Origin: a virus
Taxonomy: Duplodnaviria > Heunggongvirae > Uroviricota > Caudoviricetes
Strand: one strand, 5' to 3'
DNA: 64,000 bases
IMG/VR virus record: IMGVR_UViG_2585427757_000006
Below the pieces are notes generated by a model, which ran no database searches, was not told the DNA's origin, and worked only from the letters and a program-made list of their open reading frames with translations. Position numbers and translations under genes: made by a program. This document shows, one piece after another, positions 1,276-41,811 of the stretch (positions within the stretch are counted from its first letter, which is position 1; each line of letters opens with the position of its first letter).

Positions 1276-4994
<3,719 letters not shown>

Positions 4995-5008
4995 AATTGT
5001 AAATTCCC

Positions 5009-6172: not shown

Positions 6173-6181
6173 ATTCGCGTC

Positions 6182-7462
6182 CTATTGCTCAACCATTTCT
6201 GGGGTGATTTTTATTTTTCCTGTCACGGCGCTGTTGATCAGGGTGGTTTTGTATTCTTTAAGCTTTTCAATCTGCGACTTTTGGATATCAATCGTGCGAT
6301 TCAGATCTGGCTCAATTCCTTCAATGAACGAAATTATTTCTTGAATTTCATCTTTTGGTGGCACTGGAACCAATACACTTGCAAGACGATCCCTTGTTAA
6401 TTTTGGCTGTGCCGCACCAGAAATATATACCGTATAGTCCAATCCGCTTAATAATTCGGCCCAGTATTTAAAACCATGAAATTTTGGCTTAATAATATGT
6501 GCATGGTTATTCACCCAATACTTTCCAGTTGCAACAAAAGCCAATGGTGTTGACTTGCTTAGCAAATTCGCGCCATCTTCAGCGATCAAGATTAAATCTT
6601 CATCAAAGATGTAGTCATCAACATAATCGATAACACCACTTGCTCCGTAATACGGATATACGCCCTGTCTCGACTCTCTCTCAACTGCGCTTATTGGAAC
6701 TCTTCTACTGTTAAGAAACTCAAACGCATATCTCAATGACATTAAGTTCCAATGCGCTGGAATCTTACCAATCCAATCCACACCGGAGTCTTTCATTGGC
6801 ACATTGGGATCAAGCCCTTGGGTCACCGCCTGTTGGATGATGATCTGCTTACGCTCTTTCAGCAGGCTAATTTGCTGCTCTTTGATCGAAATCGCTTCGT
6901 CGATTAGAGCGGTTTTCTTGTCGAGAAAATTTGCAATTAGGGACTGCTCTTCTTCTGAAGGCAGAACAAAAGGAATCACCTTCATCCGTGCTTTTGAAAG
7001 GTCCCACTGACCAATCCTTACACCATCTGATGCACTACCAAAAAACGATACATATAACTTACTGCGTATCGCCCAATTGAAAAACTCAGGATTTATTGCC
7101 TTTGTAAAATCAAAAATAAAATACGCAGGACTTACAATTCCAGTGAACTTTGATACACCGTAAGAACCCTGCCACGCTTTCATTTTATTCATTCCAAATT
7201 GACCTTTCTCAAGCTTTTTATAGCCGCTAAGATCATCTGGTATAAAATTGTGATTTGACTCTTGATTATCCACGTCTCTCTCGATAACACCTTGTTCGCG
7301 TGTTATCGAAAGTAGTGGCAATTCAGGGCAGTTTTTGACCGACACCGGAGATAGGCACGAGCCTAACTTAACCAAGTCCCAATGCTCTGGAATCTCGCCA
7401 ATCCACTCATAACCAGAGTCACTATATTGATCATACTTTAGCGTTGAGGTAATGCTTTCCAT
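6182..7462 (-). CDS. hsdS: type I restriction-modification specificity subunit (426 aa, two target-recognition domains)
   Basis: Size and bipartite architecture; position between hsdM and hsdR; start overlaps hsdM stop. Confidence 0.85.
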   Translation of the reverse strand: MESITSTLKYDQYSDSGYEWIGEIPEHWDLVKLGSCLSPVSVKNCPELPLLSITREQGVIERDVDNQESNHNFIPDDLSGYKKLEKGQFGMNKMKAWQGSYGVSKFTGIVSPAYFIFDFTKAINPEFFNWAIRSKLYVSFFGSASDGVRIGQWDLSKARMKVIPFVLPSEEEQSLIANFLDKKTALIDEAISIKEQQISLLKERKQIIIQQAVTQGLDPNVPMKDSGVDWIGKIPAHWNLMSLRYAFEFLNSRRVPISAVERESRQGVYPYYGASGVIDYVDDYIFDEDLILIAEDGANLLSKSTPLAFVATGKYWVNNHAHIIKPKFHGFKYWAELLSGLDYTVYISGAAQPKLTRDRLASVLVPVPPKDEIQEIISFIEGIEPDLNRTIDIQKSQIEKLKEYKTTLINSAVTGKIKITPEMVEQ

Positions 7463-9891: not shown

Positions 9892-10051
9892 TTTCTTTTC
9901 CTGTTCAGTGTTGGTTGCACCCCACAAAGTTGCTGCAACGGCTTCACTATAAATTTAAAATTCTGTTCTTTCTGTAACGCCTAAATGGCCTCTACATCGT
10001 TCGATTAACTTGTTCTACCCGGCGCTAGATTTAAGTTTATGACACCATAAA

Positions 10052-10100
10052 GTGAATCGCCACAGGTTTAATAGACTGAATCGCCACAGGTTTAACAGAC
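10052..10100. repeat. tandem direct repeat, 2 x ~24 bp (TGAATCGCCACAGGTTTAAYAGAC)
   Basis: Two adjacent near-identical copies in the intergenic region between the lipoprotein gene stop (10124) and hsdM start. Confidence 0.8.
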
Positions 10101-10123
10101 ACCTCAGAGTCATTTAAGATGAC

Positions 10124-10315
10124 TTAAAGAGAGGTGTACAGCTCGGTATTCAGACCAGTCCACTGACGGCCAACGCCGACAACTTCACCGATACCTTTGT
10201 CTTCACCCAATTTGTTTACTTTGATGCCAACGTACCCAGGCTCAACACGATCGCAGCCTGTAAGACCCATTGTGCAAACAGCAGCCACGATCACTGCCAG
10301 TAAACCTTTCTTCAT
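10124..10315 (-). CDS. small lipoprotein (63 aa)
   Basis: Signal peptide with lipobox LTGC (MKKGLLAVIVAAVCTMGLTGC). Confidence 0.5.
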   Translation of the reverse strand: MKKGLLAVIVAAVCTMGLTGCDRVEPGYVGIKVNKLGEDKGIGEVVGVGRQWTGLNTELYTSL

Positions 10316-14660: not shown

Positions 14661-15830
14661 TCACGTCTTAATAGTTTCTGCTACGTCGGCTAATATCGCT
14701 TCTAGTCGTTCTCCCTCTTCAGGTCTGAAGTAAAGAATGTTGGGGTTAAACCCGTAAAAGACAGTAACGTCAAGGTCTGGAAGATACTCCTTCCTGCCGA
14801 CCAAATCGGATGGCTTGTTTTTGTTGTTAAACAATGAAGTTGCCCGGCTGCCACACGTCAGCACATAGGTCGGACGCACCAGATTGATCTCTTCACGCAT
14901 AAAGTCGGTGAACTGGCCGATCTCGTCTTTGGTGTAGTCTTTTTCTTTGTCTTTAACCTTCTTGCAAACACCTGTGACATAGAGATCGCCCATGCGTAAA
15001 TCTCCAGCCGTCAATAGCTTGGCCTTAAAGTCGTCGTATCCGTTCTCCATAAAGTAACCGGTTCGAGCATCATTGCCGTTCGCATTGTCCAGAATGATCA
15101 TGATTTTCGGCTTAATACCAATGCTGGGGCGGATTAGTTCATCACCTAAGCCCATTTCAGCCGCCATCCGCGTCATGAGTACGTTAATTTCAGCCGAACG
15201 TTTGGGGTTCATCTCAAACGGACGTGAGGCTTTAACTGCGTCTATGACAAGGTTTCCCATCAATTCAGCCTGGTCGCGTAGGCGCTCTGGATCAGTTGCT
15301 GGCAGACTGCCTGGCTCGATGGATGCAAACGCCCCTACTTTTTGCAGCGATTCGCGCACTCGACTATTACAGGCACGTTTCTCGACAGCTTCTTCGAATT
15401 GCGCCAGTGACTCGAATTTGCCGCCAACTTTTTCTCGCGCTCTCATGATGGCTTGGCAGCCATTCTCAGAACACCCCTTCACAGCAGAGAAGGGCGCATA
15501 CAGCACCTGGCTGCCATCTTCAAGCGTGCGGATCTCGATTCGGTTAGATGACACGTTAACGTCTGGTGGCAATACGCGAATGCCATAGGTCAGCGCATCT
15601 TTAACCAGCCCCTGGTGTTTATCTTCGCCAAGAATAGTGAGAGCAGCAGCGAAAAACTCTGCGGGATAATGAGTTTTCAACCACATAGATTGATAACTGA
15701 TTAAGGAGTAAGCAACAGAGTGTGATTTGTTGAAGGCATACGCGCCGGATTTCTCAAACATATTCCAGATTTCTTCGGCTCGTTCGTGCGTCAGGCCATT
15801 GCTCTCTTCGACAACACCGGTAATTTTCAT
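14661..15830 (-). CDS. dnaE: DNA polymerase III alpha (DnaE-type) C-terminal segment
   Basis: FNKSHSVAYSLISYQSMWLKTHYPAEF matches the conserved DnaE motif; ATG overlaps the HNH gene stop. Confidence 0.8.
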   Translation of the reverse strand: MKITGVVEESNGLTHERAEEIWNMFEKSGAYAFNKSHSVAYSLISYQSMWLKTHYPAEFFAAALTILGEDKHQGLVKDALTYGIRVLPPDVNVSSNRIEIRTLEDGSQVLYAPFSAVKGCSENGCQAIMRAREKVGGKFESLAQFEEAVEKRACNSRVRESLQKVGAFASIEPGSLPATDPERLRDQAELMGNLVIDAVKASRPFEMNPKRSAEINVLMTRMAAEMGLGDELIRPSIGIKPKIMIILDNANGNDARTGYFMENGYDDFKAKLLTAGDLRMGDLYVTGVCKKVKDKEKDYTKDEIGQFTDFMREEINLVRPTYVLTCGSRATSLFNNKNKPSDLVGRKEYLPDLDVTVFYGFNPNILYFRPEEGERLEAILADVAETIKT

Positions 15831-16561
15831 GCAGTCACCTCATCAATCTTCACGAACTCATCCCCATTGGAGGCCAGCCAGTTCCGTTGGCGCTCCCAGC
15901 TCCATATCTCTTCACGCATTTCACTATGCAGGCGAATGTGGGCGTCTTCTGGAAGTGCTACAAGATTCCCAGGGGCGTTATCTATCGTATCGCGGTTAAT
16001 ATGGTGGACATGTTCATCGTCACGTAGCTCCCGACCGAGACGTTCTTTCGCTATCAATCGATGAACGTATTCGTATTGCGAAACGCCATTGTTACCAACC
16101 AGCTGCATCATGTAGCCGTTGGTTTTTACGATGATGCCACCTTTGTAGTTGTTCGCTTCTTCTCCGATCTTTCCGCGTTTGGCAGCCGCCAGCTTTTCCT
16201 TCGTCTCCGCGCGGATTGTTCTGCCGGTTAGCTTTTTCGAAACGGTGGCCACTCGCTCATCGATATCAGCACGCAGACCGGCATTCCACGAGGTTTTCCC
16301 ATACATAGGGTTGCCAGTGCCAGTCCGGGCTTCGGAGAGACGCTTCATACGTTCGTCATTATTTTTGTTTTTGCCACGATTCCAGGCTGGGGTAGCGGAG
16401 ATCCGCGCGCTTCCGCGCCTGATCCCCCATTTGGCTAATAAGCGGTCAATATTTGCCTTGCTGCAACCAGCTTCGGCGGCAATGTCTTCTTTTCTCATCA
16501 GGTCAACCATGTAACGCTGACGTAACCATTCTTCTGTGATTTTGTACTTCGTACTCGGCAT
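15827..16561 (-). CDS. HNH homing endonuclease inserted between the two dnaE segments
   Basis: HNH motif HVHHINRDTIDNAPGNLVALPEDAHIRLH; N-terminal NUMOD-like repeats (NPMYGKTSWNAG, GRTIRAETKEKLAAAKRGK). Confidence 0.85.
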   Translation of the reverse strand: MPSTKYKITEEWLRQRYMVDLMRKEDIAAEAGCSKANIDRLLAKWGIRRGSARISATPAWNRGKNKNNDERMKRLSEARTGTGNPMYGKTSWNAGLRADIDERVATVSKKLTGRTIRAETKEKLAAAKRGKIGEEANNYKGGIIVKTNGYMMQLVGNNGVSQYEYVHRLIAKERLGRELRDDEHVHHINRDTIDNAPGNLVALPEDAHIRLHSEMREEIWSWERQRNWLASNGDEFVKIDEVTA

Positions 16562-16609
16562 TTCTAAGACTCACTAAACAAATTGTTTTCTTATCTTATA
16601 AATTAATTC

Positions 16610-18973
16610 TCAAATATCGAAGCTCGTTATGTCGGCATTTATTGCCATTGCTTCGGCATAAGTGCGACGCTCACCATCAGCACAAAGTAGGCGTGCTGCT
16701 TTATGGATTTTTCTCGTAGAACCATCATCCAGTGACACTGTCACCCAGCCTTCCTCCGCTCGCTTAATGAAGTCGCCGCCAATGGATTTCATTTTCTCCA
16801 TATCTTTTTTCCCGATCGCTTTCCTGACCGAGTCTGCTTCCGCCATTGAGAACCCCGCCAAGATTCGCGTAGCAGCCATGATCTGTTCCTGATAAATCAG
16901 AACTCCGTTTGTGTCGCGAGAGATGTCGTCCAGCATTGGGTGTAAGGAATGTGGGGCCATGAAGCCTTTGGCCACGGACACATAATCGTCCAACATGCCG
17001 GATTGAATCGGGCCAGGTCGGAAGAGCGCAGTTGTAGCGACGACCGTTTTAAAGCTCATTGGCTCAATTCCACCACCTAAATCTTTAAGCAGCTTGCGCA
17101 TTGGGCCTGATTCAAGCTGGAATACGCCCTGTGTATACCCTGCAGCAAAACCATCCAGCACCTTGCGATCTTCAAGAGAAATGGCATCAAGATTGATATC
17201 TTCACCTGTGTTCTCTTTTATGTAGCGTTTTGCACTATCGAGCAAATCGAGAGTTGCCAGGCCAAGCACGTCCAGCTTAATTAGGCCCATAGCCTCGCAG
17301 TAACGCTTGTCAAATGCGATACAACGCGCGTCACCACGGCGTTCAACCGGTGTACGTTCTGTCAGAGGAACACCTGCTACGATCATCCCTGCCGCATGTC
17401 TACCAAAGCCACGCATAAGGCTTTGTAACTTGCAGGCTGCATTGAATGCATCAGGATATTTTGTTGCGTATTTGTCGAGACTTGCCAGTTGTTCGCGCAG
17501 CTCTTCCAATGGAAGGCTATCATCCTCGACGTTCTTCAGTTCTTTTGATACCGCCATATCTGCGGACTCCACACCATAAATACGAGCGGTGTCACGTAGT
17601 GCAGAGGCTGCGCCCAGGTAGGTGAAGTTCGGAATGCCTGCAACGTAATCTTCGCCGTAGCGTTCATTCAGATACTCGATCACCTCATGGCGACGTGCCT
17701 GGCTGAAGTCCAAGTCCGCATCCGGCAAGTCGAGACGCTCAGGGTTGATGAAACGCTCAAACAGAAGACCGTGACGGATTGGGTCGACGTTGGTTATGCC
17801 TATGCACCACGCCACCAGAGAACCGGCAGAGGAACCACGACCAGGCCCAACGGGAATGCCAGTTTCACGACTATGATTCATCAGATCGCGCACCATCAGG
17901 AAGTAACCACAGAATCCCAGGCGAGTCAGCGTGTCCATTTCGTACTTTAGCCGCTCAACATAAACCCTGTTCTCAGAAGCAGGTGGTGTGTATCCAAACT
18001 CTTTTGTGGTAAGACGTTTACGCAGCCCTGCAACAGCCAGTTTCATCAGCGTTGCAGGTTCGTCGTCTGCCATCTTGGGCAGTGCTGGTGGCAATTCATG
18101 CCAGCGCCATGTGCAGGCATCGATAATGGAGTCCTGCGTTGTTGAGGCCATTGCAGCTGTTACCGGCACATCCATGCGAACGGAGAAGGCTTTAAGCGCC
18201 TCAAGGAGATGGCGACGACCATTGATGGCGTTATCTCGCTGGTGGGGGATACGCAGACGATGCGGCTGGTCGATTTTTATGTTGTTCGTAACCATGTGCG
18301 CAATGTCTTTAATGTCTGCATCGTCGATCGATTCGTAATAAGCGGGATAGAACGCCACTGGCTCTATTTTCAATGCGCTGGCGACTTTCATCGCCCGGAC
18401 GTTAATCTGGTCGTAGAATGGGGTAGGGTGCGGATAAACCACACTATAGAAGTTGTCTTTTCCACCCGCTGTAATCAGTGTGCTTATGATTTTTGCAAAA
18501 TCGTTGCGTTGGAACACGCTACCGATGTCGGAAGTAAGCAGGATGATGTTGCCTTTGGCATATGTAGAAACCAACTGTTCGAGCGAGAGACGCGGCACAA
18601 AGTAGAACTGTTCTCGTGTGTTGGCCACCGTCATTAGTTCGCAGATGTCGCGATATCCTTGCTCATTTTTAATTAGAGCGGTAAACGAGTAGTTACGTCC
18701 CCGCTCTAATGATTCCATACATCTCATAGATTCTTTAGCAAGTTTAGCCCGGTGCTCGTATGTGGGATCATCAACAATGTTTAGTTTCACACCACAAATA
18801 ACCGCCATGTCGTCACCAGCGGCACGTTGTAGTGGAATAACGCTCGCAATATTCATGCTATCTGCTGAAATTACAGCGGTGTAGCCAGCTTCTCTGGCAA
18901 TCTTCACCGCGTTTTCAGCTTTTAGAGCCGACTCCCCAAGTGAGAAGTCAGTTCGAACCATCAGTGCCTTCAT
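16610..18973 (-). CDS. dnaE: DNA polymerase III alpha (DnaE-type) N-terminal segment (PHP plus polymerase core)
   Basis: GPGRGSSAGSLVAWCIGITNVDPI and LIKLDVLGLATLDLL match conserved DnaE core motifs. Confidence 0.85.
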   Translation of the reverse strand: MKALMVRTDFSLGESALKAENAVKIAREAGYTAVISADSMNIASVIPLQRAAGDDMAVICGVKLNIVDDPTYEHRAKLAKESMRCMESLERGRNYSFTALIKNEQGYRDICELMTVANTREQFYFVPRLSLEQLVSTYAKGNIILLTSDIGSVFQRNDFAKIISTLITAGGKDNFYSVVYPHPTPFYDQINVRAMKVASALKIEPVAFYPAYYESIDDADIKDIAHMVTNNIKIDQPHRLRIPHQRDNAINGRRHLLEALKAFSVRMDVPVTAAMASTTQDSIIDACTWRWHELPPALPKMADDEPATLMKLAVAGLRKRLTTKEFGYTPPASENRVYVERLKYEMDTLTRLGFCGYFLMVRDLMNHSRETGIPVGPGRGSSAGSLVAWCIGITNVDPIRHGLLFERFINPERLDLPDADLDFSQARRHEVIEYLNERYGEDYVAGIPNFTYLGAASALRDTARIYGVESADMAVSKELKNVEDDSLPLEELREQLASLDKYATKYPDAFNAACKLQSLMRGFGRHAAGMIVAGVPLTERTPVERRGDARCIAFDKRYCEAMGLIKLDVLGLATLDLLDSAKRYIKENTGEDINLDAISLEDRKVLDGFAAGYTQGVFQLESGPMRKLLKDLGGGIEPMSFKTVVATTALFRPGPIQSGMLDDYVSVAKGFMAPHSLHPMLDDISRDTNGVLIYQEQIMAATRILAGFSMAEADSVRKAIGKKDMEKMKSIGGDFIKRAEEGWVTVSLDDGSTRKIHKAARLLCADGERRTYAEAMAINADITSFDI

Positions 18974-22593: not shown

Positions 22594-22691
22594 GGCTAAT
22601 CCTTTGTTATGAAAACAAATTATTTACTAGTGTGTTTAATGTAGCACTGCGCGAACAGGGAACTAAGCCATTCGCGCAGGGAGAAGAGGGG

Positions 22692-31138: not shown

Positions 31139-31915
31139 TTACCAACTTCCCCAGCTAATCATCTTGCGCTGATCGCTTTCTAAGCGATAGGGGACAAGAA
31201 GCTCTGTGACATGATTGGTGGCGTATGATTTAGCCTCTTGCTCTATCATCGGTAATTCGTTAGCAATCCTGACCATCTTCCCAGCAAACTCCGCCATTAC
31301 GCCATCACATGCCTTCCCAGCATCAATAACGATATGCACCAGATCCAACTGGCTTTTGCACATGTCGCAAAGAGACGCATACTCACTCTCTCTGATTACA
31401 TTTACGGCATCATTGGCCCCTTTATTAAGCAAGACTTCCAACAGGTTTGTCGGGGTAACGAAATCTGCTTTCAGAGATAATGTCTTTTCACCACTTATCG
31501 AACGCAAGTACTCTTCGTAGTTATTCTTCATCAAACCGCTGCTGCGCATTGCTAGAACTGCTTCTTGAATGGCCGCTTCAATAGTTTCGTCGTTTGAAAG
31601 ACAAAAAACGGTATTTGTGTAGATCACTCTGCCATCAAGCCATGCTCCAACCTGCACTTTAAGACTGAGCGGGTTTTCTTTGCTAATAAAAACAACTAAT
31701 GCAGAACGCCGTGCACAAGAAGGTTCGCCCCATACGTGTAACTCAACTTTCAGATAAGGCAACCCTGGTAGCGGGATCTCGTCCATACGAGCAGCGATAT
31801 GATTCATTGCTGTATTGACGGCCTTTCCAATGATGTCTAGTCGACTGCCCTCGCTGATTTCTAAACCTGTTTTATCAATGATGTCACAGGCCAATTTCTG
31901 AATTTCGTCTTTCAT
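31139..31915 (-). CDS. hypothetical protein (258 aa)
   Basis: ORF track; dyad motif ~40 bp upstream of start. Confidence 0.5.
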   Translation of the reverse strand: MKDEIQKLACDIIDKTGLEISEGSRLDIIGKAVNTAMNHIAARMDEIPLPGLPYLKVELHVWGEPSCARRSALVVFISKENPLSLKVQVGAWLDGRVIYTNTVFCLSNDETIEAAIQEAVLAMRSSGLMKNNYEEYLRSISGEKTLSLKADFVTPTNLLEVLLNKGANDAVNVIRESEYASLCDMCKSQLDLVHIVIDAGKACDGVMAEFAGKMVRIANELPMIEQEAKSYATNHVTELLVPYRLESDQRKMISWGSW

Positions 31916-32040
31916 ACCAACTCCTAGCTAACAGATGAAAGTATTCTTACAAAAAACTAAGTATGTATCTACTTATCATTTTAGGCGCAATAGTTCCCTA
32001 TACGAAGATGCCGGGCTTATAGTCTGCCCGGCATTCACCA

Positions 32041-32455
32041 TTAATGAGCTACAGCCTCACTGTTGCACATCTTTCTGTAGACCTGCTTATAACGCTGTAA
32101 GTCATGAGGATCATTAGGTGCCAACGACTTCGATAGGATTTTGTATACCACCCCTTTCGAAAACATGCCCTTTGGCTTCATTTCGAGTTCAACAACATAT
32201 GAGTGATAGCCCACGTATGCACCAAAGCCCATTTTTGGCGTTCAATTCTCCGCACACAAAGCCTGTCACACTCCCATCGTCATGATCAGTCCTGACAAAC
32301 TTATCTTTCCTAAACATCACCGACGTGGGATCTTTCATATCATCCGCAATTGCTTGTTGGCCCAGAGCAATAGCCTTCTCGTCTGTAGGCTTACACCCCA
32401 CTAAAGCAAACAAAGACAATAAAGCTCCTGTTAAAATCAGCTTATTTTTGCTCAT
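32041..32455 (-). pseudogene. lipoprotein gene apparently split by a frameshift at an A5 run near 32225
   Basis: N-terminal ORF 32189-32455 has lipobox LVGC; a second ORF (32041-32232) in another frame continues from the same point. Confidence 0.35.
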
Positions 32456-32688: not shown

Positions 32689-33834
32689 ATGAAATACATA
32701 AAATCTTCATCGTTGCTGGCATTAACTTTGCTTTTTAGCTCTGGATTCGTTAACGCAGACAATAAACAAACGCTGATAGAAGCCGCTACCGCAGGGGATA
32801 CCGCAGCACAAAGTGAGTTAGGGACAAATTATTTTGATGGTATCAATGGTTTTGATAAGGATGTAGTTGAGGCCAAGAAGTGGATTGATCTCGCTGCAGA
32901 AAAGGGAGACAAAGTAGCATATTATGCACTTGGGGTTATGTACACATTTGGCGAGGGTGTAGATAAAGACCTAAATAAAGCTGTTGAGTACTACAAACTT
33001 GCGGGGGATGCTCGTGAAGGTAGAGCCTACAACAATCTTGGTGCTATTTATCAAAAGGGGTTGCTTGGTAAAGTAGATCATGCACTCGCCATTAAATACT
33101 TCAAACTAGCCTCTGATGCCGGGTATGTTAAAGCAACTTCAGTTCTTGGGGCGTATTACCAATATGGTAAAGGCGTTAAAAAGAATTATAAAAAGGCTTT
33201 TACTTATTACAAAAAGGCGGCAGACCAAGGCAGTTCAGAAGCTATGATAGGATTAGGAATACTATACGATGATGGGTTAGGCGTTAAACGCAATGATGCA
33301 GAAGCAGTTAAGTGGTATAAAAAGGCAGCGGAACTTGGAAACGCCGACGCCATAACCAATCTTGGCATTATGTATGAGAATGGGGAAGGTGTAAAAAAGG
33401 ACTATAAAAAAGCAGCCGACCTTTATCAGACTGCTTGCGATAAAGGAGAAAAAAGAGGCTGCGATTACATTGCAGAACTGAAAGAAAGCGGCAAATATCG
33501 AGCGCCGGCTTCCAAAGCCAAAACAAAATCCGCCACCCAGCGACTTATTGCTAAATCCATTGATAAGGGCGTTAACGCTACATTTACCTGGCAGGGTGAT
33601 GATGCTACCTTCACCGCTAATGATGGCAAAGTTGACTGCACATTCCTGAAGGATTTTTCAGAGAAAGGAGGCAATCTGGCTACCTCGTTTGTTTGCACAG
33701 ATAACGTTCAAATCATCCTGAAGCAATTCAGAGATACCAAAAATGCCTACCTCGCGGTAATGACTGACAACTTCAATACTGAAGTTAAATCATTTTCGGT
33801 CAATGTGTATGTGACTAATACTGGTTCAAACTAA
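32689..33834 (+). CDS. secreted Sel1-like repeat protein (signal peptide plus ~8 Sel1 repeats plus ~100-aa C-terminal domain)
   Basis: Signal peptide MKYIKSSSLLALTLLFSSGFVNA; repeated A..WYKKAA..G...A...LG.MY..G.GV.KD units; plus strand, opposite to neighbours. Confidence 0.8.
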   Translation: MKYIKSSSLLALTLLFSSGFVNADNKQTLIEAATAGDTAAQSELGTNYFDGINGFDKDVVEAKKWIDLAAEKGDKVAYYALGVMYTFGEGVDKDLNKAVEYYKLAGDAREGRAYNNLGAIYQKGLLGKVDHALAIKYFKLASDAGYVKATSVLGAYYQYGKGVKKNYKKAFTYYKKAADQGSSEAMIGLGILYDDGLGVKRNDAEAVKWYKKAAELGNADAITNLGIMYENGEGVKKDYKKAADLYQTACDKGEKRGCDYIAELKESGKYRAPASKAKTKSATQRLIAKSIDKGVNATFTWQGDDATFTANDGKVDCTFLKDFSEKGGNLATSFVCTDNVQIILKQFRDTKNAYLAVMTDNFNTEVKSFSVNVYVTNTGSN

Positions 33835-35007
33835 TGCAGCTATGCCTTTTACCTTGCTTAAAAGTTCAAGCTGTCGTGAGTAAGGTTTTGCGCAATAGTA
33901 GGCTTTGATAATCTGCCCGGGGGTCGCATCGCCGGGGTCGAGTCCTTCCTCGCCCAAACATGCAATTTTCACATTAAGACCAATACTGCTCAGTCGCCTG
34001 GCTGCGGCCATAGTGTTGCGTATAGCCTGCTTTTCACTATCCCACATCATAATCACATTACGTAGCCCACGCGCCTTGAGCGTCAGGAACGCGCCCAGCT
34101 GATCTTCTGCATCCTGAGTGGTGTTACCAGATAGATGCATCCCGAACGTTCCTATTGGTTCCACGTAATCACGTAATGTTTCTTCGTCAAAAATAGCTCG
34201 TTTGACCCCCATAACATCGAACGCCCCCTCACAGACAACTACAGTCTGTTTGCCGACTGCATTATGGCCGTTGTAGAGAAACCTACCTGAAGCTGGAAGC
34301 TGCATAGGAAAGAGGTAGCGACGTTCTGCTGCACCGGTAATGTCACGCCCCTGGAAGGTCTTCATCACGCCATCCAGATCGTAAACCGGTATCAGGATGC
34401 GCATATCAAACACCTGCCCTTTGACCTGGTCTGTGTACGGATCGACGTATGCGTGCTTGCCTTCGACGCAGTAACGCAGATCAAAGTATTTGGCCAGATC
34501 CGGGGAGATATGGCGCTCCACCAGATAATCAGGAAGACGACCGTCAATGGGGAGTTCGTAATGTCGAGGGAGAGCTACTGGCCCTTCGAGTTCAACCTTG
34601 CTGGCCAGCACGACCTCTTCCTTCTTCGGCGCCCATCCTTGTGAGATCAGCGCGTTCTGCACATATTCCTCGAACTGTCGTCGTGATTTACCGCTGTAGT
34701 GCTTGAGGAAGACCAGCTTATTGAACTGAATCTCTTCGGGATGATCACCAGCAAAGCATTTGCCGACGCCACTGGTCAGATTGAAATATACCTTCCAGTT
34801 GGAGCTGCCACATACCGGACACTCCTTGATATTCACTTCACGACCGCGAGCACTCACGCCTCCACGTCGATAAACGATACCTTCAGTGTCCAACCATTGT
34901 TCAAAATCTAATTCGGTAATTAGCTCTTTCAGCTCGCTCACGATAATTCCACTTTTAATAGGCAATATTGTGACCAACCTAAATGTTGATATAATATAAA
35001 GGTTCAT
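33826..35007 (-). CDS. DNA primase (zinc-binding plus TOPRIM domain)
   Basis: Zinc motif CPVCGSSNWKVYFNLTSGVGKCFAGDH; TOPRIM VVVCEGAFDVMG; start uncertain (ATG 35007 or GTG ~34944; ORF track 35079). Confidence 0.8.
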   Translation of the reverse strand: MNLYIISTFRLVTILPIKSGIIVSELKELITELDFEQWLDTEGIVYRRGGVSARGREVNIKECPVCGSSNWKVYFNLTSGVGKCFAGDHPEEIQFNKLVFLKHYSGKSRRQFEEYVQNALISQGWAPKKEEVVLASKVELEGPVALPRHYELPIDGRLPDYLVERHISPDLAKYFDLRYCVEGKHAYVDPYTDQVKGQVFDMRILIPVYDLDGVMKTFQGRDITGAAERRYLFPMQLPASGRFLYNGHNAVGKQTVVVCEGAFDVMGVKRAIFDEETLRDYVEPIGTFGMHLSGNTTQDAEDQLGAFLTLKARGLRNVIMMWDSEKQAIRNTMAAARRLSSIGLNVKIACLGEEGLDPGDATPGQIIKAYYCAKPYSRQLELLSKVKGIAALV

Positions 35008-35088
35008 GTGTTTTTCTTTTGTGGTTTGGCAAAAGAAAAGTTGTTTCACCAATGAATCAAGCGTGGAGGTGTTCTCCACGCTTATTTT

Positions 35089-36429
35089 TTAGGTAACGTC
35101 TAAGATTCGCTCAATGAAGCGCATTTGTTCGAGGTTTTGTTTAACGCGAATGCTGACCCCTCCCTGCTGGTTACGAGAACCAGCAAAGTAGAGACGAGCC
35201 TCTCCTTTCGCTTCTTCTTCTTCGGTTTTGTTGATCGTTATTACCAGGTCAGCAATACGTACTTTTTCGATGTTGTCGGCGGCGTGCATCATTGTGGCAA
35301 CTTCTGACGCGCCACCTTCACGGTTTGTCTGCGATGCCGTGATCCCAGCAACGTTATGCTTGTCATAAAGAGCACGTAAATCGGTGTAGATACTACGAAT
35401 GTTAGCGCGATCATCACGAAGGTCATAACTGGCACGCATCAAATCTGCGTAGTCGACAACAACCATATCAGGCACCATGCCATTGGCTTTCATGCTGTTA
35501 AGCATACGGTCCAGATCTGCCGGTGACATACTTCCTGACGGACGCTCAACAACCCACAAACTACCAATCCCCTTCGTGGCTCCCAACTCTGCCAACTTAC
35601 GATGAACCTCATCGCGCCGTTCAACCAGCTTGGACATTTCCGTCTCCGACAATCTTGCATCAAAACGGTCGGATAAAATGGTGGTGTGAACCTCCAGCGA
35701 GAGATACAGAACATTGTAGCCAGCAAGCGTTGCGTTTATGGAAAACTCACCCATTGCGGTCGATTTACCGGATTTAGCGAACCCCATGAAGAGCACCATT
35801 TCACGCTTCGCCCAGCCTTTTTGGTACAGCAACCTATCGAGCAGAGGGAGTCCAGTTGTAATGCTGTTTGGCACATACTCCTCTGAAGCCTCATATTCAC
35901 GCGCTTTCAATCGCTCACTTGCGGAGGTGTAGTAGTCATAGATTCCGGTCGCTTCGTTCGATCCAATCTGCTGAACCTTGGCCATGATTGCCATCGCCCC
36001 CTGAAAGTCGCCCTTCTCTTTCAGTTCAGCAGCCTTAATCAGAGCATCATCAAACGCTACGCTTTTTGCGAAGGTTGATACCTGGTCAACCATGTACGAG
36101 GTATCGGACAATTTTTCTGCAAGGATGCGCTTAAACGCAGCAACAACATCGGCGAATAGTTCCTCACGGATGGTCTTATCGCGTTTAGCACGTTTAAGCA
36201 TATCCAGAATCGCAGATGAAGAAGGCGCGCTCTTGTACATACGGTAATAGCCCGAAACCATATTAACCAATATGGCATTGGCCGCATTGGCAAATTGGCT
36301 AGGCACAACCAGATCTCCCGCACGAGTAAGAAACTCGTGATCACGACAAAAATATGCCGTCAGTCTGTTCTGGAAATCTTCATCAAACTCTTCGGACAGC
36401 CCGCGTCCTGTATGGCAAAGTTCGGTCAT
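35089..36429 (-). CDS. replicative DNA helicase (DnaB-like)
   Basis: RecA-fold C-terminal domain with Walker A MGFAKSGKSTAMG and Walker B region MVVVDYADLM. Confidence 0.85.
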   Translation of the reverse strand: MTELCHTGRGLSEEFDEDFQNRLTAYFCRDHEFLTRAGDLVVPSQFANAANAILVNMVSGYYRMYKSAPSSSAILDMLKRAKRDKTIREELFADVVAAFKRILAEKLSDTSYMVDQVSTFAKSVAFDDALIKAAELKEKGDFQGAMAIMAKVQQIGSNEATGIYDYYTSASERLKAREYEASEEYVPNSITTGLPLLDRLLYQKGWAKREMVLFMGFAKSGKSTAMGEFSINATLAGYNVLYLSLEVHTTILSDRFDARLSETEMSKLVERRDEVHRKLAELGATKGIGSLWVVERPSGSMSPADLDRMLNSMKANGMVPDMVVVDYADLMRASYDLRDDRANIRSIYTDLRALYDKHNVAGITASQTNREGGASEVATMMHAADNIEKVRIADLVITINKTEEEEAKGEARLYFAGSRNQQGGVSIRVKQNLEQMRFIERILDVT

Positions 36430-36472
36430 GTGCTTTCCTTTGTTTTTTAAACAAATTGTTTTCTAGTATTAG

Positions 36473-37327: not shown

Positions 37328-37382
37328 GACCTGCTTCCGTATATATATATACTAAGATACTTATTATATACGGAAGCAGGTC
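37328..37382. terminator. 18-bp perfect inverted repeat hairpin (GACCTGCTTCCGTATATA / TATATACGGAAGCAGGTC), 19-nt loop
   Basis: Lies 23 nt downstream of the DUF2971-like gene stop; loop contains a TAAGATACTTAT dyad-like core. Confidence 0.6.
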
Positions 37383-37404
37383 ATAATTGTTGATACTACC
37401 AATA

Positions 37405-38160
37405 CTAGTATCCAAGAAAATCAGTATCTTTCTCTAATCTTATTTTTTCCAGCTTATACGATCCTGGAGGGCACTTCATTTTGTAGATTTCGATACCTGA
37501 ATCAAATAGTTGATGAACATAATTTTGAAGTTGACTGCTAGCCTTACAACCTATTGTTATTTCCTTAATTAAGGATTTATCAAATAATTTCACGCCACAA
37601 TTCTCGGTTACGATTCTAACCTCCTCTTCATATTCCCAGACATCGCTTTTATTTAGGCAAAGAGCCGCTGCAATCTCTTTAGCTGAGTCGGTAAAAAAAT
37701 TTACAACCGGAACATCAGAGGAATATTTGACCTCACCGCGAACAAAAAAAACATCATCAAACGCATTTATAAAACCATCATCAAATCCGATGCAAAAACC
37801 AGAGTGAGAATGCGCATAATGCGACCACATAAGATAATTATCTGGTCTTTTTGTCAAACAAATAACTCCCCGACACTGCAGAAAAGTTGTTCTAATCATA
37901 TAGTTATCAAAACTGCGACTATGTTCTGTTTGACTCAATAACCAGCGTTCAAATTCATCATTGTGATGATTAGGCCAAAGCTCAAAAAATCTTTTCTTAA
38001 TGGCGTCTATATCAGCATCATAATCAAAATTAACTTTAAACTCGGCAGGATCGTTGAAATCATTCGGACGAGTTGCTCGAATTTTCCCATCTTCTAAGTA
38101 ATACTTTAAATACTTTATTGTGTCTTCCGGGACGCTACTTCCAACATATTTGTAAAGCAT
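37405..38160 (-). CDS. DUF2971-like protein (~251 aa), AT-rich cargo gene
   Basis: FNDPAEF and LMWSHYAHSHSGFCIGF match what I recall as DUF2971 hallmarks; likely start MLYKY at 38160; flanked by strong hairpins. Confidence 0.5.
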   Translation of the reverse strand: MLYKYVGSSVPEDTIKYLKYYLEDGKIRATRPNDFNDPAEFKVNFDYDADIDAIKKRFFELWPNHHNDEFERWLLSQTEHSRSFDNYMIRTTFLQCRGVICLTKRPDNYLMWSHYAHSHSGFCIGFDDGFINAFDDVFFVRGEVKYSSDVPVVNFFTDSAKEIAAALCLNKSDVWEYEEEVRIVTENCGVKLFDKSLIKEITIGCKASSQLQNYVHQLFDSGIEIYKMKCPPGSYKLEKIRLEKDTDFLGY

Positions 38161-38174
38161 AAATATACCTTTTA

Positions 38175-38202
38175 AGAGAAGGCGTCTAATCACGCCTTCT
38201 CT
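38175..38202. terminator. hairpin AGAGAAGGCGT-ctaatc-ACGCCTTCTCT
   Basis: 11-bp perfect stem directly after the parG-like stop. Confidence 0.55.
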
Positions 38203-38204
38203 TA

Positions 38205-38564
38205 TCAACCTTTCTTCATCAACTCTCGTTTAATTTCATCGGTACGCATCGTGACATCGGCAGCTGTGATTGCCTCGTTAAGTTTCACGATGTCCTCGAT
38301 TTCCTGCGGTGACTTCTCTGCCAGATGGAAAATGGCTGCGCGAATCACGTCAGAACGGGTGAATTTCTCGAAGCGAGGGATGAACTTCATCATCTCCAGC
38401 AGTTCGAAGTATTCGTCCTCCAGTGACATTGTGCGGCTTTTAATTTTCTCTTTGCCACGAGTCGGGCGTCCCTGTGGTCTGACTGGTTGGCGCAAAGGAG
38501 TTGTGTTCTTAGCCGGTGCATCAGGCTCTTTGCGCTTTGCTAGGTCACCCATTTTCATGGACAT
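38205..38564 (-). CDS. ParG-like small partition protein (putative ribbon-helix-helix centromere binder)
   Basis: 119 aa, basic N-terminal tail; start overlaps the ParA stop. Confidence 0.5.
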   Translation of the reverse strand: MSMKMGDLAKRKEPDAPAKNTTPLRQPVRPQGRPTRGKEKIKSRTMSLEDEYFELLEMMKFIPRFEKFTRSDVIRAAIFHLAEKSPQEIEDIVKLNEAITAADVTMRTDEIKRELMKKG

Positions 38565-39232
38565 TATTCTTCTTCCTCCAGACTCAACAGATAATCTACA
38601 AATTCTTCAAACTCGGCTTCCGCCTTTTTGTCGCGCTCGCTACCGGTCATTTCAAAGATAGAACGACCAGACTCTTCCGCATCATCATAGACGTTGCGGT
38701 TATATAGATTGACTGGCGCAGACTCGATTCCAAACGTCTCAACAATCTCTTTAGCCGCCAGAATGCGAGACACTTGTGATGGCAAAGCCGGGCACTGGTT
38801 CATGACCGCGCGGACCTTCACTTTATCGTTTACATTGCGAACATTGTCGATAATAGGATCGATGTCACGCAGAGATTTCAAATCACGACGCTTAGGACGA
38901 AGCGGGATAATGATAACGTCGGCCATCAGCATCGCTTGTCGCTGAATTTCGGAGTCGAAGCCACCAGCATCTACCACTACAAACTCAGCTCTACCCTGAA
39001 GCGATTTTAGGTGCTTAATGATGTCATCCTGAACGTATGCAAAAGGAATCAGCTCAAGGTCTTCGTTCTGTCGACGGTCTTCACACCAGCTCGTTGTCGT
39101 GCGCTGAATATCTATATCGGTAATATAAACCTTCTTCTTCTTTTTGACTTTCAGGCAAACGGCAATTTGCTGGGCAACGGTGGATTTGCCAGGCCCGCCC
39201 TTTGTGCCGCCAACCACAAAGATCTTGGTCAT
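38564..39232 (-). CDS. parA: ParA-family partition ATPase (small type)
   Basis: Deviant Walker A GGTKGGPGKSTVA; 222 aa with no N-terminal HTH. Confidence 0.85.
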   Translation of the reverse strand: MTKIFVVGGTKGGPGKSTVAQQIAVCLKVKKKKKVYITDIDIQRTTTSWCEDRRQNEDLELIPFAYVQDDIIKHLKSLQGRAEFVVVDAGGFDSEIQRQAMLMADVIIIPLRPKRRDLKSLRDIDPIIDNVRNVNDKVKVRAVMNQCPALPSQVSRILAAKEIVETFGIESAPVNLYNRNVYDDAEESGRSIFEMTGSERDKKAEAEFEEFVDYLLSLEEEE

Positions 39233-39550
39233 TGGAGAGTTCCCTTTGCGTATATAATTATCGTCTGAAACAACTTGTTTTCTTATATGTGATATAGCCT
39301 AAATGCCTACGGCTGCGGTGTAAAGGTTAAATGGTAGGTTGTGATTAACAATTGGCAAACATAGCTTGTATTTGTCTGTTGAAAAAAGTAACAATGACCT
39401 CTATATTACAAGTACGGTGATATGCCGTACACAATTTGATAATGCACACGTAATGGGCTATAGCCTTTTAAAGTAATTTTTGAGTCGAAAACTCAGTTTG
39501 AACAGAGGAGATTGATGGCCTTCCTACATCACGGCCATCAGGAGGAATAC

Positions 39551-39820
39551 ATGTCAGCACTAAAAAAGCAGCGCATCGATTTGAGATTAACCGATGACGA
39601 TAAAAGCATCATCGAGGAAGCTGCCGCAATGTCTAACCAGAGCATTACTCAGTTTATGGTTAGCAGTGCATCTGAACGTGCCGTGAAAGTTATAGAGCAA
39701 CACCGTAGACTAGTTCTGAATGAAGAATCCTGGAATCTGGTTATGGACGCTATAAGCAATCCTCCGGCACCGAACGACAAGCTGAAACGAGCTGCTGATC
39801 GTCTGAAAAGCATGGAGTAG
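39551..39820 (+). CDS. TacA-like (DUF1778) ribbon-helix-helix antitoxin
   Basis: AGGAGG Shine-Dalgarno before the ATG at 39551; C-terminal NPPAPNDKL as in DUF1778 antitoxins; immediately upstream of a GNAT gene. Confidence 0.7.
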   Translation: MSALKKQRIDLRLTDDDKSIIEEAAAMSNQSITQFMVSSASERAVKVIEQHRRLVLNEESWNLVMDAISNPPAPNDKLKRAADRLKSME

Positions 39821-39827
39821 TTTACTC

Positions 39828-40349
39828 GTGGATAATATAAAGATAGAAATTTTCTCTGGAGAGAAAGATTATGATTTGAATGGTTTTGATTGCGGTGAAG
39901 AATCACTAAATGCCTTTTTAACCAACCACTTAAAAAGGCAGCATGAGGGAAAAATTCTTCGCGCTTATGTGCTTTGCACGAAAGAAGGCAGACCAAAAGT
40001 GTTAGGGTATTACACTTTGTCAGGTAGCTGCTTTGAAAAGGAGTCCTTACCTTCAAGAAGCCAGCAAAAGAAGGTACCTTATCGGAATGTTCCAAGTGTT
40101 ACTTTGGGTAGGCTGGCTTTGGACAAGTCCCTTCAAGGTCAAGGATTTGGCTCAATGCTTGTAACACATGCAATGCGCGTTGTGTACAATGCATCTCTTG
40201 CTGTAGGCATTCATGGACTTTTCGTTGAGGCGTTAAATGACAAAGCCAAGGCGTTTTATAAAAGTTTAGACTTTATCCAGCTGGTTGGTAACAACGAGCG
40301 TTCTTTGTTCTATCCTACAAAATCTATCGAAAAATTGTTCGAAGAATAA
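39828..40349 (+). CDS. GNAT-family acetyltransferase toxin (TacT/AtaT-like)
   Basis: Acetyl-CoA binding motif GRLALDKSLQGQGFGSMLV; 173 aa; GTG start 8 nt after antitoxin stop. Confidence 0.75.
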   Translation: MDNIKIEIFSGEKDYDLNGFDCGEESLNAFLTNHLKRQHEGKILRAYVLCTKEGRPKVLGYYTLSGSCFEKESLPSRSQQKKVPYRNVPSVTLGRLALDKSLQGQGFGSMLVTHAMRVVYNASLAVGIHGLFVEALNDKAKAFYKSLDFIQLVGNNERSLFYPTKSIEKLFEE

Positions 40350-40380
40350 TGTACTCCCCTCAAGTGAGGGGAACTTCGCA

Positions 40381-40596
40381 TCACCAACCGCAAACTCTCT
40401 CTCCCATCGTATTGTGAAAAAGGATTTGGCGTTCGGTTTCTTCGGTCATCACATCATTATTGCTGATATAGATAGGCCCAGCTCCATCGCAGAACAATAC
40501 GCTGGCGGTTTGTGGTTTAATGACGCACCCACTTATCATACAACTCACGATGAACGGCAGAAGCATCTTTCTGACGTATTTTATTGCTCGTCTCAT
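40381..40596 (-). CDS. outer-membrane spanin lipoprotein (Rz1-like), overlapping the i-spanin gene in another frame
   Basis: Lipobox MISGC; ~80 bp overlap with the i-spanin ORF. Confidence 0.5.
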   Translation of the reverse strand: MRRAIKYVRKMLLPFIVSCMISGCVIKPQTASVLFCDGAGPIYISNNDVMTEETERQILFHNTMGERVCGW

Positions 40597-40768
40597 TCAC
40601 CACTTCCACTGTGCTTTGAAGTCGTTTTCTGTCTTCCTGTTTTGCCTTCTCTTCCATTGCTCGTCGCGCCGCATTCCCGCCCATCGTGTAAGCGCCGACA
40701 AGAACGAAAAGAACGGCAGCCAGCGTAATCAAAGCAACTTTTAGCTTTGTCATCAGGCTGCCTAGCAT
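40517..40768 (-). CDS. inner-membrane spanin (Rz-like)
   Basis: N-terminal TM helix ALITLAAVLFVLVGAY then charged coiled-coil region. Confidence 0.55.
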   Translation of the reverse strand: MLGSLMTKLKVALITLAAVLFVLVGAYTMGGNAARRAMEEKAKQEDRKRLQSTVEVVNETSNKIRQKDASAVHRELYDKWVRH

Positions 40769-40769
40769 A

Positions 40770-41489
40770 TTAGACCATCCCTTTCTGGTGTTTTCTTACC
40801 TGCGACCAGGCAATGAATCCGGCCACAACAATAGTGGCAATACCGAAGATGATGCGTACTGTATCCCCGCTAGAGATATGACCTTGTGCTTTATCCATAG
40901 CAGCGGAAACCTGCGGCATAACATCGGCCAGCTGCGCCAGACCAATACCTGCTGTAACAGTTGCGCCTGCGGTTTCTTTAGTTACAGGAACAGCCTTCAC
41001 GGTTTTCACCGGCTTAACAACGCCAGCTCGACGCAGACCTTCCTCAATAACTTCTGCCGCATACCAGGTGTTCAGCGTTTTTAGCGGACCTCGCCCATTC
41101 TCATGGCGAATGATTGCCTCAACCAAAGGTCGAAGAATGTCGTAATCATGCAGATCGATAATCATGTCTGCGGTTACACCAACGGCTTTAGACACCTCAT
41201 TAATGTAGGCGTCAGTATTGTTTTCATTCGGCGGTGCCCAACGTTCAATAACTTCACGAATGGTATCGATACTTGAGCCGTCTTTTGCGCGACGTTTGTC
41301 GTGGTAGGTAATTAGAGTCACCGCCAGCGCACGAATCCCCCAAACAGGGTCTTTAAACGTGCAAAAGCGCGGTTCGTCTGGATTCGCAACCAGACCTTGC
41401 CACGGTGATCCTTTATCAAGATTACCGGGGTTATTATTACGAATGCCTCTCGGAGTCTTCATCCTTGATCTCCTGTTATTGCAGTCCAC
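40770..41489 (-). CDS. putative endolysin / peptidoglycan hydrolase with a C-terminal hydrophobic segment
   Basis: Directly upstream of the spanin pair; N-terminal GIRNNNPGNL motif; C-terminal IIFGIATIVVAGFIAW. Confidence 0.4.
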   Translation of the reverse strand: MDCNNRRSRMKTPRGIRNNNPGNLDKGSPWQGLVANPDEPRFCTFKDPVWGIRALAVTLITYHDKRRAKDGSSIDTIREVIERWAPPNENNTDAYINEVSKAVGVTADMIIDLHDYDILRPLVEAIIRHENGRGPLKTLNTWYAAEVIEEGLRRAGVVKPVKTVKAVPVTKETAGATVTAGIGLAQLADVMPQVSAAMDKAQGHISSGDTVRIIFGIATIVVAGFIAWSQVRKHQKGMV

Positions 41490-41811
41490 TTTTTACGCCA
41501 TACGCGGCTAACCCCAAAAGCAGTGCGGTAATAATGAACGACGTTATTTTAGAAACAATGCCGCCAAAGAACCCACTTGAGATGGAATCTAACCGGTTAA
41601 GGAGTTTGTCCAGATTGGAGTGTTGAATACTATGTTGCGCCGGGGTCATATCACCAAAGTAGGTTTTCAGCTGATCATTGACCTCCTGGCCAATTTCTTC
41701 ACGTAGCTCTTTACCTAATTTGCCAACAACCTCCCGAGCAACGATCGCGGCAATACGCTCAACTTGCTCTGTTGTAACGCCCGCCATCTCGTTCGACATG
41801 TTTTCCTCCAT
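41476..41811 (-). CDS. putative holin or lysis-associated membrane protein (single C-terminal TM)
   Basis: First gene of the lysis cluster; C-terminal FFGGIVSKITSFIITALLLGLAAYGV. Confidence 0.3.
   Translation of the reverse strand: MEENMSNEMAGVTTEQVERIAAIVAREVVGKLGKELREEIGQEVNDQLKTYFGDMTPAQHSIQHSNLDKLLNRLDSISSGFFGGIVSKITSFIITALLLGLAAYGVKSGLQ

Follow-up and report, generated by a model that had tools for sequence, protein, structure and literature searches.

A predicted partition operon beside an optional AtaRT/KacAT-type toxin-antitoxin cassette in a probable SSU5-like phage-plasmid of Escherichia coli

How is a tailed-phage genome maintained when plasmid-type genes sit in its middle? Positions 38205-40349 of the viral DNA record IMGVR_UViG_2585427757_000006 (Caudoviricetes) raise this question, and we examined them within a 64,000-nucleotide stretch of that record, hereafter called the window. 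The listing of open reading frames (ORFs) and direct reading of the DNA gave four ORFs arranged as two divergent operons. On the minus strand, parA (38564-39232) encodes a 222-residue protein and is followed by a gene for a 119-residue protein (38205-38564), here called the ParA partner. On the plus strand, a gene for an 89-residue antitoxin (39551-39820) comes first in a bicistronic unit and is separated by 7 nt from the gene for a 173-residue GNAT toxin (39828-40349). Pfam families could be assigned to three of the four proteins (222, 89, and 173 residues) and none to the 119-residue one. A sequence-only reading had taken these genes for divergent partition (par) and toxin-antitoxin (TA) modules in the interval between replication and lysis genes, and both the ORFs and the annotation of the flanking genes agree with it.

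We consider it very probable that the region is the plasmid-maintenance part of an E. coli SSU5-like phage-plasmid, made up of a core par operon and an optional AtaRT/KacAT-type TA cassette. Publications or databases already contain the element type, its life as a plasmid, and the annotation of ParA and of a KacT-like toxin. Because these central points stand in the literature or in database annotation, the main finding is already known, and our result chiefly confirms that a phage-plasmid can be recognised from raw sequence. The points of narrower interest are an orphan family of ParA partners, the centromere of a very common plasmid family, and a dispersed palindrome.

The closest relatives identify the element. 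Across window positions 37400-40400, circular, non-mobilizable E. coli plasmids of 109-113 kb share 99.7% nucleotide identity with this 3-kb region, and Escherichia phage Cyrano (pLF82) shares 98.3%. Salmonella phage SSU5 (86.5% identity) and Klebsiella relatives (about 80%) match in the par part only. Cyrano (OV696614 / NC_011917) and plasmid pLAO7 (NZ_OP242221) are the closest known elements, and they belong to the SSU5_pHCM2 group of the SSU5 supergroup. Cyrano and the E. coli plasmids have the same gene order as the window, namely helicase, a 249-residue gene, DUF2971, partner, and parA, and then, divergently, antitoxin, toxin, Rz1, Rz, endolysin, and holin. The sequence-only reading had likened the element to SSU5 and pHCM2 and had called for a comparison of whole elements; the window proved collinear with pLAO7 over 1.6-56.8 kb, a few accessory segments excepted, and the likeness to the SSU5 supergroup holds in both sequence and gene order. 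Experiments on Cyrano, itself an SSU5-like phage-plasmid, showed an extrachromosomal element with 5.5 copies per cell and virion production (PMC9928086), and the SSU5 supergroup is an established group of phage-plasmids (PMC7969092).

The location of related copies points the same way. The par block was found in 264 of 5,426 complete E. coli genomes, at 265 places, every one of them on a plasmid and none chromosomal. The TA segment was found in 152 genomes, again exclusively on plasmids (152/152, 0 chromosomal). The plasmids that carry the par and TA segments measure about 85-205 kb. Chromosomal location, which the sequence-only reading had named as the outcome that would tell against it, was therefore seen at none of these places, which is an indirect answer to that condition. 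This distribution makes it extremely improbable that the element is an integrated prophage in which the plasmid genes are remnants, an explanation to which the tyrosine recombinase gene at 23536-24639 (PF00589) might otherwise lend itself. The window is, moreover, collinear with a circular plasmid, and its only large unmatched segment holds a type I restriction-modification (R-M) cassette and an insertion sequence (IS) fragment rather than chromosomal core genes. According to one preprint, an S. Agona chromosome contains an integrated plasmid that has the SSU5 repB-parA region yet lacks phage structural genes.

Besides the tyrosine recombinase, the sequence-only reading had listed a phage replisome; genes for dnaE, helicase, and primase were found in the window, and a ligase is annotated in relatives. 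Tail fibre, tape measure, capsid, portal, terminase, holin, endolysin, and spanins are annotated in the near-identical collinear records, so that phage structural and lysis genes, by the annotation of relatives, accompany the ParA and TA genes confirmed in the window. The DnaB-type helicase/primase genes (33826-36429) flank the par/TA region on its left, and Rz1, Rz, endolysin, and holin (40381-41811, named after the 98% identical Cyrano record) on its right. In lifestyle this SSU5-type phage-plasmid may be likened to P1.

We then asked what kind of partition system the par operon encodes. ParA is a small ATPase with a deviant Walker A motif, GGTKGGPGKST, at residues 8-18 and without an N-terminal DNA-binding domain, as expected of a type Ib ParA. 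It matches the Pfam families MipZ (7e-14), AAA_31 (9e-14), CbiA, and ParA, as well as phrog_164, 'ParA-like partition protein' (E=4e-51). Its score against NF041546 ParA_partition (1.9e-33, 115.7 bits) falls under the 180-bit cutoff of that model, and we therefore regard it as a diverged member of the family. The closest solved structure is ParF of TP228 (4dzz/5u1g, E=1.2e-10), the type Ib archetype. A second 'AAA ATPase' encoded by pLAO7 was considered as a further ParA and rejected as kinase-like; accordingly, the element has a single ParA.

Comparison with the ParF-ParG-parH system of TP228 shows a shared plan and little shared sequence. Both systems have a small deviant-Walker-A ATPase, a small downstream partner with a flexible N terminus and a compact C-terminal domain, and a control region upstream of the ATPase gene. 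However, the similarity of ParA to ParF is weak (E=1e-10), and the partner shows no similarity to ParG and has two extra C-terminal helices in an AlphaFold2 (AF2) model. Furthermore, an array of short boxes, tetrameric or iterated, was not found upstream of the window parA.

The partner gene is translationally coupled to parA, its ATG overlapping the parA TAA by one base. The partner matches phrog_5111, a PHROG without assigned function, and an exhaustive profile search returned only 18 representatives of its family among 1.84 billion. Homologues with as little as 31% identity still lie directly downstream of a gene for a 221-229-residue ParA, in SSU5-like contigs of about 110 kb, and the pairing of ParA and partner looks obligate for this reason. 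The codon overlap and the conserved pairing provide the co-transcribed small partner directly downstream of the ATPase gene that a type Ib operon is expected to have; DNA binding by this protein is predicted by analogy.

Type Ib centromere-binding proteins typically combine an N-terminal peptide, a basic linker, and a small DNA-binding core. In the family alignment of the partner, the N-terminal motif (M/F)G(D/G)L(A/T)K is conserved, the basic linker varies, and the core, I-x-S-R-T-x-S-x-E ... (T/S)-R-S-D-V-x-R-A, is invariant. In the window protein, the N-terminal motif is MGDLAK, within the peptide MSMKMGDLAKRK, and the core reads I-K-S-R-T-M-S-L-E-D-E ... F-T-R-S-D-V-I-R-A-A-I, followed by two more helices. 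In RHH_1, a ribbon-helix-helix (RHH) family, the strand and second helix have a signature similar to this core. Sub-threshold RHH matches fell in the same register, with aCcr1 at 2.3e-4 for the window protein and RHH_1 at 0.0053 and 0.11 for two homologues, and an hhalign comparison with CopG gave 0.016, likewise sub-threshold. Profile searches of PDB sequences with the partner gave nothing usable, as did hhalign comparisons with ParG, CopG, and the window antitoxin. No match to PF09274 (ParG) was found among 12 members of the partner family at a Pfam E value of up to 10.

These data divide the sequence-only proposal of a ParA/ParG-like system with an RHH-like partner. The ParA families match and the partner does lie downstream of ParA, but no ParG-family signal was detected, and 'ParG-like' may be kept only as a functional analogy. 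The RHH assignment was not confirmed, given sub-threshold scores and structure searches that returned no RHH protein, and we regard the fold as weakly supported. By its sequence, the partner is a member of a tiny orphan family that always lies beside an SSU5-type ParA, and not a member of the ParG family. By analogy with type Ib systems, its central RHH-like segment most likely serves for DNA binding and its conserved N-terminal tail for the stimulation of ParA.

The same gene carries a different label in the deposited Cyrano record and paper, where CYRAN_29 (6806-7165 of the Cyrano stretch examined, corresponding to window 38205-38564) is a 'RelE/ParE putative toxin'. Apart from that annotation and its mention in the Cyrano paper, nothing favours such a toxin. 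No RelE/ParE family was matched by 12 family members at a Pfam E value of up to 10 or in NCBIfam, no PDB sequence matched, and the predicted structure is all-helical. In addition, no antitoxin gene adjoins it, its neighbour being the translationally coupled parA. We judge a RelE/ParE toxin here to be barely credible; the Cyrano annotation should be corrected, as the gene almost certainly encodes a ParA partner.

Could ParA instead work with other proteins, or could the 119-residue product be a mere transcriptional regulator? At 63.9-66.0 kb, pLAO7 encodes an ABC ATPase and two proteins with ParB N-terminal domains (ParB_N) near the terminase. The partner matches no known centromere-binding family and no iteron array lies beside its operon, which leaves room for these two proteins. 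Nevertheless, they are a weak alternative. Their genes lie about 30 kb away and outside the window, and ParB_N proteins next to phage packaging genes are common and not usually partition proteins. The partner, by contrast, is coupled to parA and stays paired with it down to 31% identity, and its N-terminal peptide, basic linker, and small DNA-binding-like core fit a type Ib centromere-binding protein. We therefore find it unlikely that the 119-residue protein is anything other than the centromere-binding partner of ParA.

Where might this partner bind? The minus-strand control block upstream of parA (39264-39339), identified by its conservation, is a candidate operator and centromere and holds the predicted parA promoter. 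Among elements of E. coli, Salmonella (SSU5), and Klebsiella (pJN2-26), 74 of its 76 positions are fixed, whereas identity to the same Salmonella and Klebsiella elements reaches only 80-86% over the entire parA-parB block. Its core, CTTTACAC...TTGTTTCA (about 55 bp), hardly varies among the 30 unique variants from 79 loci. Conservation ends sharply at 39339/39340, where the cargo starts. Within the block lie two palindromes, AAACAAcTTGTTT (39268-39280) and TATATgtgATATA (39284-39296), with the patterns AAACAA-N-TTGTTT and TATAT-N3-ATATA, respectively. Possible parA promoter hexamers were recognised by eye on the minus strand, TTTACA at 39324-39319 and TAGGCT at 39301-39296. No significant extra copies of TTATATGTGATATAG were found, and Rfam gave no relevant matches. 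Reasoning from characterised homologues, we regard the invariant block as the best candidate for the centromere. A scan of viral contigs yielded only relatives at least 91% identical, a set useful for a census of cargo and not for phylogenetic footprinting of the centromere.

A second candidate, a near-perfect 55-bp palindrome (37328-37382), lies on the other side of the operon, where the slot downstream of parB has its far edge. Its 18-bp perfect arms, GACCTGCTTCCGTATATA, surround an AT-rich centre. The palindrome recurs with one or two mismatches in SSU5 and PhiR41_1 and is diverged yet symmetric in Klebsiella pJN2-26. We rejected it as a downstream centromere, as diverged relatives have hairpins of different sequence at the equivalent place. 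Since TTTT follows on the minus strand and relatives carry such different hairpins there, it is probably the terminator of the operon, although unusually long for one.

One palindrome of the control block is not confined to it. Read on the minus strand, the sequence TAAGAAAACAAnTTGTTT precedes many leftward genes, at 12-65 nt from their start codons. The window holds four copies (16576-16588, 22613-22625, 36449-36461, and 39268-39280) against 0.36 expected, and none of 100 shuffled sequences reached four. The leftward genes preceded by the palindrome include parA, the DnaB helicase gene, an HNH ORF inside dnaE, and a gene adjoining the terminase. pLAO7 has eight exact and four near copies. Across the element, the palindrome AAACAAnTTGTTT stands shortly before parA, the DnaB helicase gene, and 10 or more other leftward operons. 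It persists in distant SSU5-like relatives, in one of which it again precedes parA and dnaB (3302 and 5654 of the stretch examined). Because TAAGAAAACAAnTTGTTT recurs upstream of many leftward genes, we interpret it as a genome-wide promoter or operator element; its sequence was not found in the literature searched.

A more speculative reading, which we hold to be rather unlikely, joins the palindrome to the partner. The partner may found a centromere-binding family restricted to SSU5-like phage-plasmids, with the dispersed AAACAAnTTGTTT sites as its targets. If so, partition would be coupled with the global control of replication and phage genes through sites that act as both centromere and operator. 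Parallels for such coupling of a regulator to a centromere are KorB on RK2, omega on pSM19035, and SopB on the phage-plasmid N15.

In the working model that we favour for the par operon, transcription would be driven from the invariant 55-76-bp control block upstream of parA. ParA and the 119-residue partner would then, in the manner of type Ib systems, place copies of the low-copy plasmid prophage in each daughter cell.

Turning to the second operon, we assigned the antitoxin to PF08681 (TacA1/DUF1778, E=5.7e-26) and the toxin to GNAT acetyltransferase families of Pfam. Among solved structures, the antitoxin matches KacA (5zgn, E=6.6e-42) and AtaR (6ajm, E=1.3e-40), and the toxin matches AtaT (6gts, E=8e-79), KacT (5zgn, E=3.7e-74), and TacT (5fvj, 6e-11). 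Toxin and antitoxin are 69% and 76% identical to the chromosomal AtaT and AtaR of E. coli O157:H7. The sequence-only reading had called the pair TacA/TacT-like. It was right about a DUF1778 antitoxin with a GNAT toxin, the pairing also found in Salmonella TacA-TacT (5fvj, 7ak8), whose antitoxin is likewise an RHH protein of the DUF1778 family and which thus belongs to the same superfamily. TacA-TacT is nevertheless far more distant, both for the toxin (6e-11 against 8e-79 for AtaT) and for the antitoxin (E=1.7e-4 to 7ak7 against 6.6e-42 to KacA).

Full-length homology and the antitoxin-first layout instead connect the window pair to AtaR-AtaT of E. coli O157:H7 (6ajm, 6gts, 7chd) and KacA-KacT of K. 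pneumoniae (5zgn, 5xun). Toxin Tyr-144 corresponds to KacT Tyr-145 and is invariant in an alignment with AtaT and two plasmid alleles, as is the acetyl-CoA motif Q-G-x-G at residues 105-108 (Q105-G106-x-G108); Y145F is the KacT variant whose structure was solved alone. In KacA, Arg-8, Asp-10, and Arg-12 contact bases, and mutation shows them to be needed for operator binding (PMC6698736). The equivalents of these three residues are identical in the window antitoxin. The window pair thus has the DUF1778 antitoxin followed by a GNAT toxin, the catalytic tyrosine, and the acetyl-CoA motif of AtaRT and KacAT, with which it also shares the DNA-reading residues and the operator arms. On these sequence grounds, we place the TA in the AtaRT/KacAT clade and not close to Salmonella TacAT, and we predict that the antitoxin binds DNA through an N-terminal RHH head and neutralises the toxin through its C-terminal region. 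The window TA differs in being carried by a phage-plasmid, whereas the ataRT and kacAT loci used for comparison are chromosomal.

We next considered how the TA operon may be controlled. The window has a single exact GTACGG-N7-CCGTAC, the sequence GTACGG-TGATATG-CCGTAC at 39412-39430 (plus strand), and no match arose in 100 shuffles. The best sigma-70-like candidate promoter (39379-39407, plus strand; TTGAAA, 17-nt spacer, TATATT) came from a consensus scan and matches the consensus at 10 of 12 positions. From the predicted -10 hexamer it is 5 nt to the start of the palindrome, which would therefore span the transcription start. An AGGAGG Shine-Dalgarno sequence precedes the antitoxin ATG at 39551. 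In the KacAT crystal, the operator DNA AAATGTACGGTTATTAACCGTACATGA has the arms GTACGG/CCGTAC and a 7-bp spacer, and the operator was reported to span the kacAT transcription start (PMC6698736). The window palindrome is identical to that DNA in its arms and in the length of its spacer.

Diverged loci retain the same design. GTACGG-TGACATA-CCGTAC lies upstream of chromosomal ataRT, and a third allele, on the RepB-type plasmid pPEC1021-3, has GTACGG-TATTTTT-CCGTAC. Arms and spacing are kept although the coding DNA of these two loci is only 65-69% identical to the window and their upstream regions cannot be aligned with it. The sequence-only guess that the palindrome is an operator therefore gains support from a crystal structure, a chromosomal locus, and a plasmid allele.

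A survey of 79 SSU5-like viral contigs with the par block, which we used for both operator and cargo, links the palindrome to the TA. It was found intact in 41 of 43 loci with an AtaRT-like cassette and in none of the 36 with other cargo, and it belongs to the TA rather than to par for that reason. The 41 of 43 cover at least three sequence alleles and ten operator variants, and the two exceptions differ by one base each. With a palindrome at the predicted start and Arg-8, Asp-10, and Arg-12 conserved, the site is almost certainly the TA operator, binding being predicted from sequence. The distance from this site down to the antitoxin ATG is about 120 nt in the window compared with about 30 nt in chromosomal ataRT, and the spacer sequence differs. 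The leader of the operon also contains a perfect 8-bp inverted repeat (39513-39540), TGATGGCC ... GGCCATCA, with a 12-nt loop, ending just 5' of the Shine-Dalgarno sequence; the leader as a whole is not unusually structured (z=-0.31).

Homology suggests how the TA could work. The GNAT toxin would acetylate charged (aminoacyl-)tRNA and block translation, whereas the antitoxin C terminus would wrap the toxin and prevent both acetyl-CoA binding and toxin dimerisation. The TA hetero-hexamer would repress its own promoter at GTACGG-N7-CCGTAC across the transcription start. For KacAT, a T-A2-A2-T hexamer represses the promoter with conditional cooperativity (PMC6698736), and the window pair may behave alike. 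In cells that had lost the element, the toxin would stop growth once the labile antitoxin had decayed, and such post-segregational killing would add to partition.

Chromosomes of the same species carry a related system. In E. coli O157:H7, ataRT lies between livJ and panM (1503-2303 of the stretch examined). A search for ataRT-type loci in the complete E. coli genomes returned 1,925 places in 1,854 genomes, with ataRT on 1,626 chromosomes. Because chromosomal ataRT has the same operator arms and DNA-reading residues, cross-regulation between host and element, or anti-addiction, is plausible. About 71 genomes hold two copies; if all of these combine a plasmid and a chromosomal copy, they would account for about 24% of 299 plasmid copies, compared with the 30% of genomes that have chromosomal ataRT. 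This rough count shows no obvious exclusion between the plasmid TA and chromosomal ataRT.

AtaT acts on Met-tRNAfMet. As a separate observation, pLAO7 carries at 78.8-82.1 kb, outside the window (28759-32050 of the stretch examined), genes annotated as metG (methionine-tRNA ligase) and apbC, which ordinarily look chromosomal. A methionyl-tRNA synthetase thus shares the element with a toxin whose homologue targets the initiator Met-tRNA, and this may be coincidence.

The TA cassette occupies a variable slot. In the window, the optional segment that carries it spans 39340-40400 (plus strand), from the parA control region to the lysis genes. Similarity to SSU5, PhiR41_1, and Klebsiella phages ends at 39339, and these relatives have unrelated genes between the parA control region and the spanins; SSU5, with its par block in common at 86.5%, has two unrelated genes where the window has the TA. 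Among the 79 loci, the AtaRT-like TA was found in 42, with one more inferred from the palindrome alone, PhiR41_1-type cargo in 11 (five full-length, six as short fragments only), SSU5-type in 6, and pJN2-26-type in 3, and 17 were unclassified. The alternative cargo genes of this slot gave no Pfam or PADLOC matches. A GC-rich hairpin at 40353-40374, a terminator-like site from the consensus scan, lies between the convergent toxin and Rz1 spanin genes and is a likely terminator.

Another slot lies downstream of the partner gene. In the window, it encodes on the minus strand a DUF2971 protein (37405-38208) that matches the PADLOC defence candidate PDC-S31 (3e-41). The equivalent slot of PhiR41_1 (2179-2946 of the stretch examined) encodes a GIY-YIG protein matching PD-T4-3 (1.6e-23). 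The TA is thus optional cargo, and parAB appears to be flanked by two cargo hotspots, one holding the TA and the other defence candidates.

Several results weigh against reading the region as a maintenance locus. On the par side, no iterated repeat array of the kind expected of a type Ib centromere was found in 39200-39560, and the AAACAAnTTGTTT palindrome (AAACAA-N-TTGTTT) was ruled out as a par-specific centromere site, having copies genome-wide. With regard to the RHH fold and ParG likeness of the partner, Pfam gave no match at the gathering score, hhalign against a ParG sequence returned a probability of 0.1, and neither AF2 model matched a recognisable fold, the better one (pLDDT 84.6) being four helices without an RHH match. 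On the TA side, the cassette is present in 152 of the 264 E. coli elements with the par block. About 42% therefore lack it, and it must be dispensable for maintenance; in addition, the defence-type genes in the neighbouring slot leave room for a role other than addiction. Finally, we found in the literature no experiment on the par or TA genes of this element, its partition, toxicity, and addiction being inferred.

The TA results in particular invite a different view, in which the AtaRT-like cassette serves mainly as a moron for defence or competition, through abortive infection against other phages or the exclusion of related elements, and does little for plasmid stability. Its optional status, in viral loci (42-43 of 79) as in E. 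coli elements, would suit such a role, as would PDC-S31 and PD-T4-3 in the sister slot beyond parAB and the type I R-M system and PDC-S11 that the window also carries. During Cyrano lysogeny, a 'KacT acetyltransferase-type toxin', the neighbouring antitoxin, and CYRAN_29 are expressed, and the study counts the TA among the morons expressed in that state (PMC9928086). On the other hand, neither TA protein matches any PADLOC model. Plasmid-borne type II TAs classically stabilise replicons, and the presence of at least three diverged AtaRT-type alleles in a slot abutting the partition control region fits maintenance. We consider a mainly defensive cassette possible but doubtful, and the two roles are not mutually exclusive. 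Since the TA is cargo and the neighbouring slot holds defence candidates, we retain addiction as the classical expectation for the cassette and not as an established fact.

The window and pLAO7 differ only in accessory content, namely a type I R-M/IS segment and an HNH-endonuclease ORF that splits dnaE, both of which pLAO7 lacks at the corresponding sites. The former (1120-10135) is the only long segment of the window without a pLAO7 match. It contains HsdR (1977-4994), HsdS (6182-7462), and HsdM (7462-9927), an embedded DUF4268 gene (5009-6172) matching the PADLOC candidate PDC-S11 (E=1e-182), and a fragment of an rve-family IS integrase (1276-1962).

The second difference concerns the DNA polymerase III alpha gene, which is split in the window (14661-18973). 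The PHP, NTPase, and finger domains are encoded at 16610-18973 and the HHH_6 part at 14661-15830. Between the two parts lies a 244-residue HNH_3/NUMOD3 homing-endonuclease-like ORF (15827-16561), on an insertion of about 15734-16788. pLAO7 has an intact 1172-residue dnaE and no match to the HNH insertion segment.

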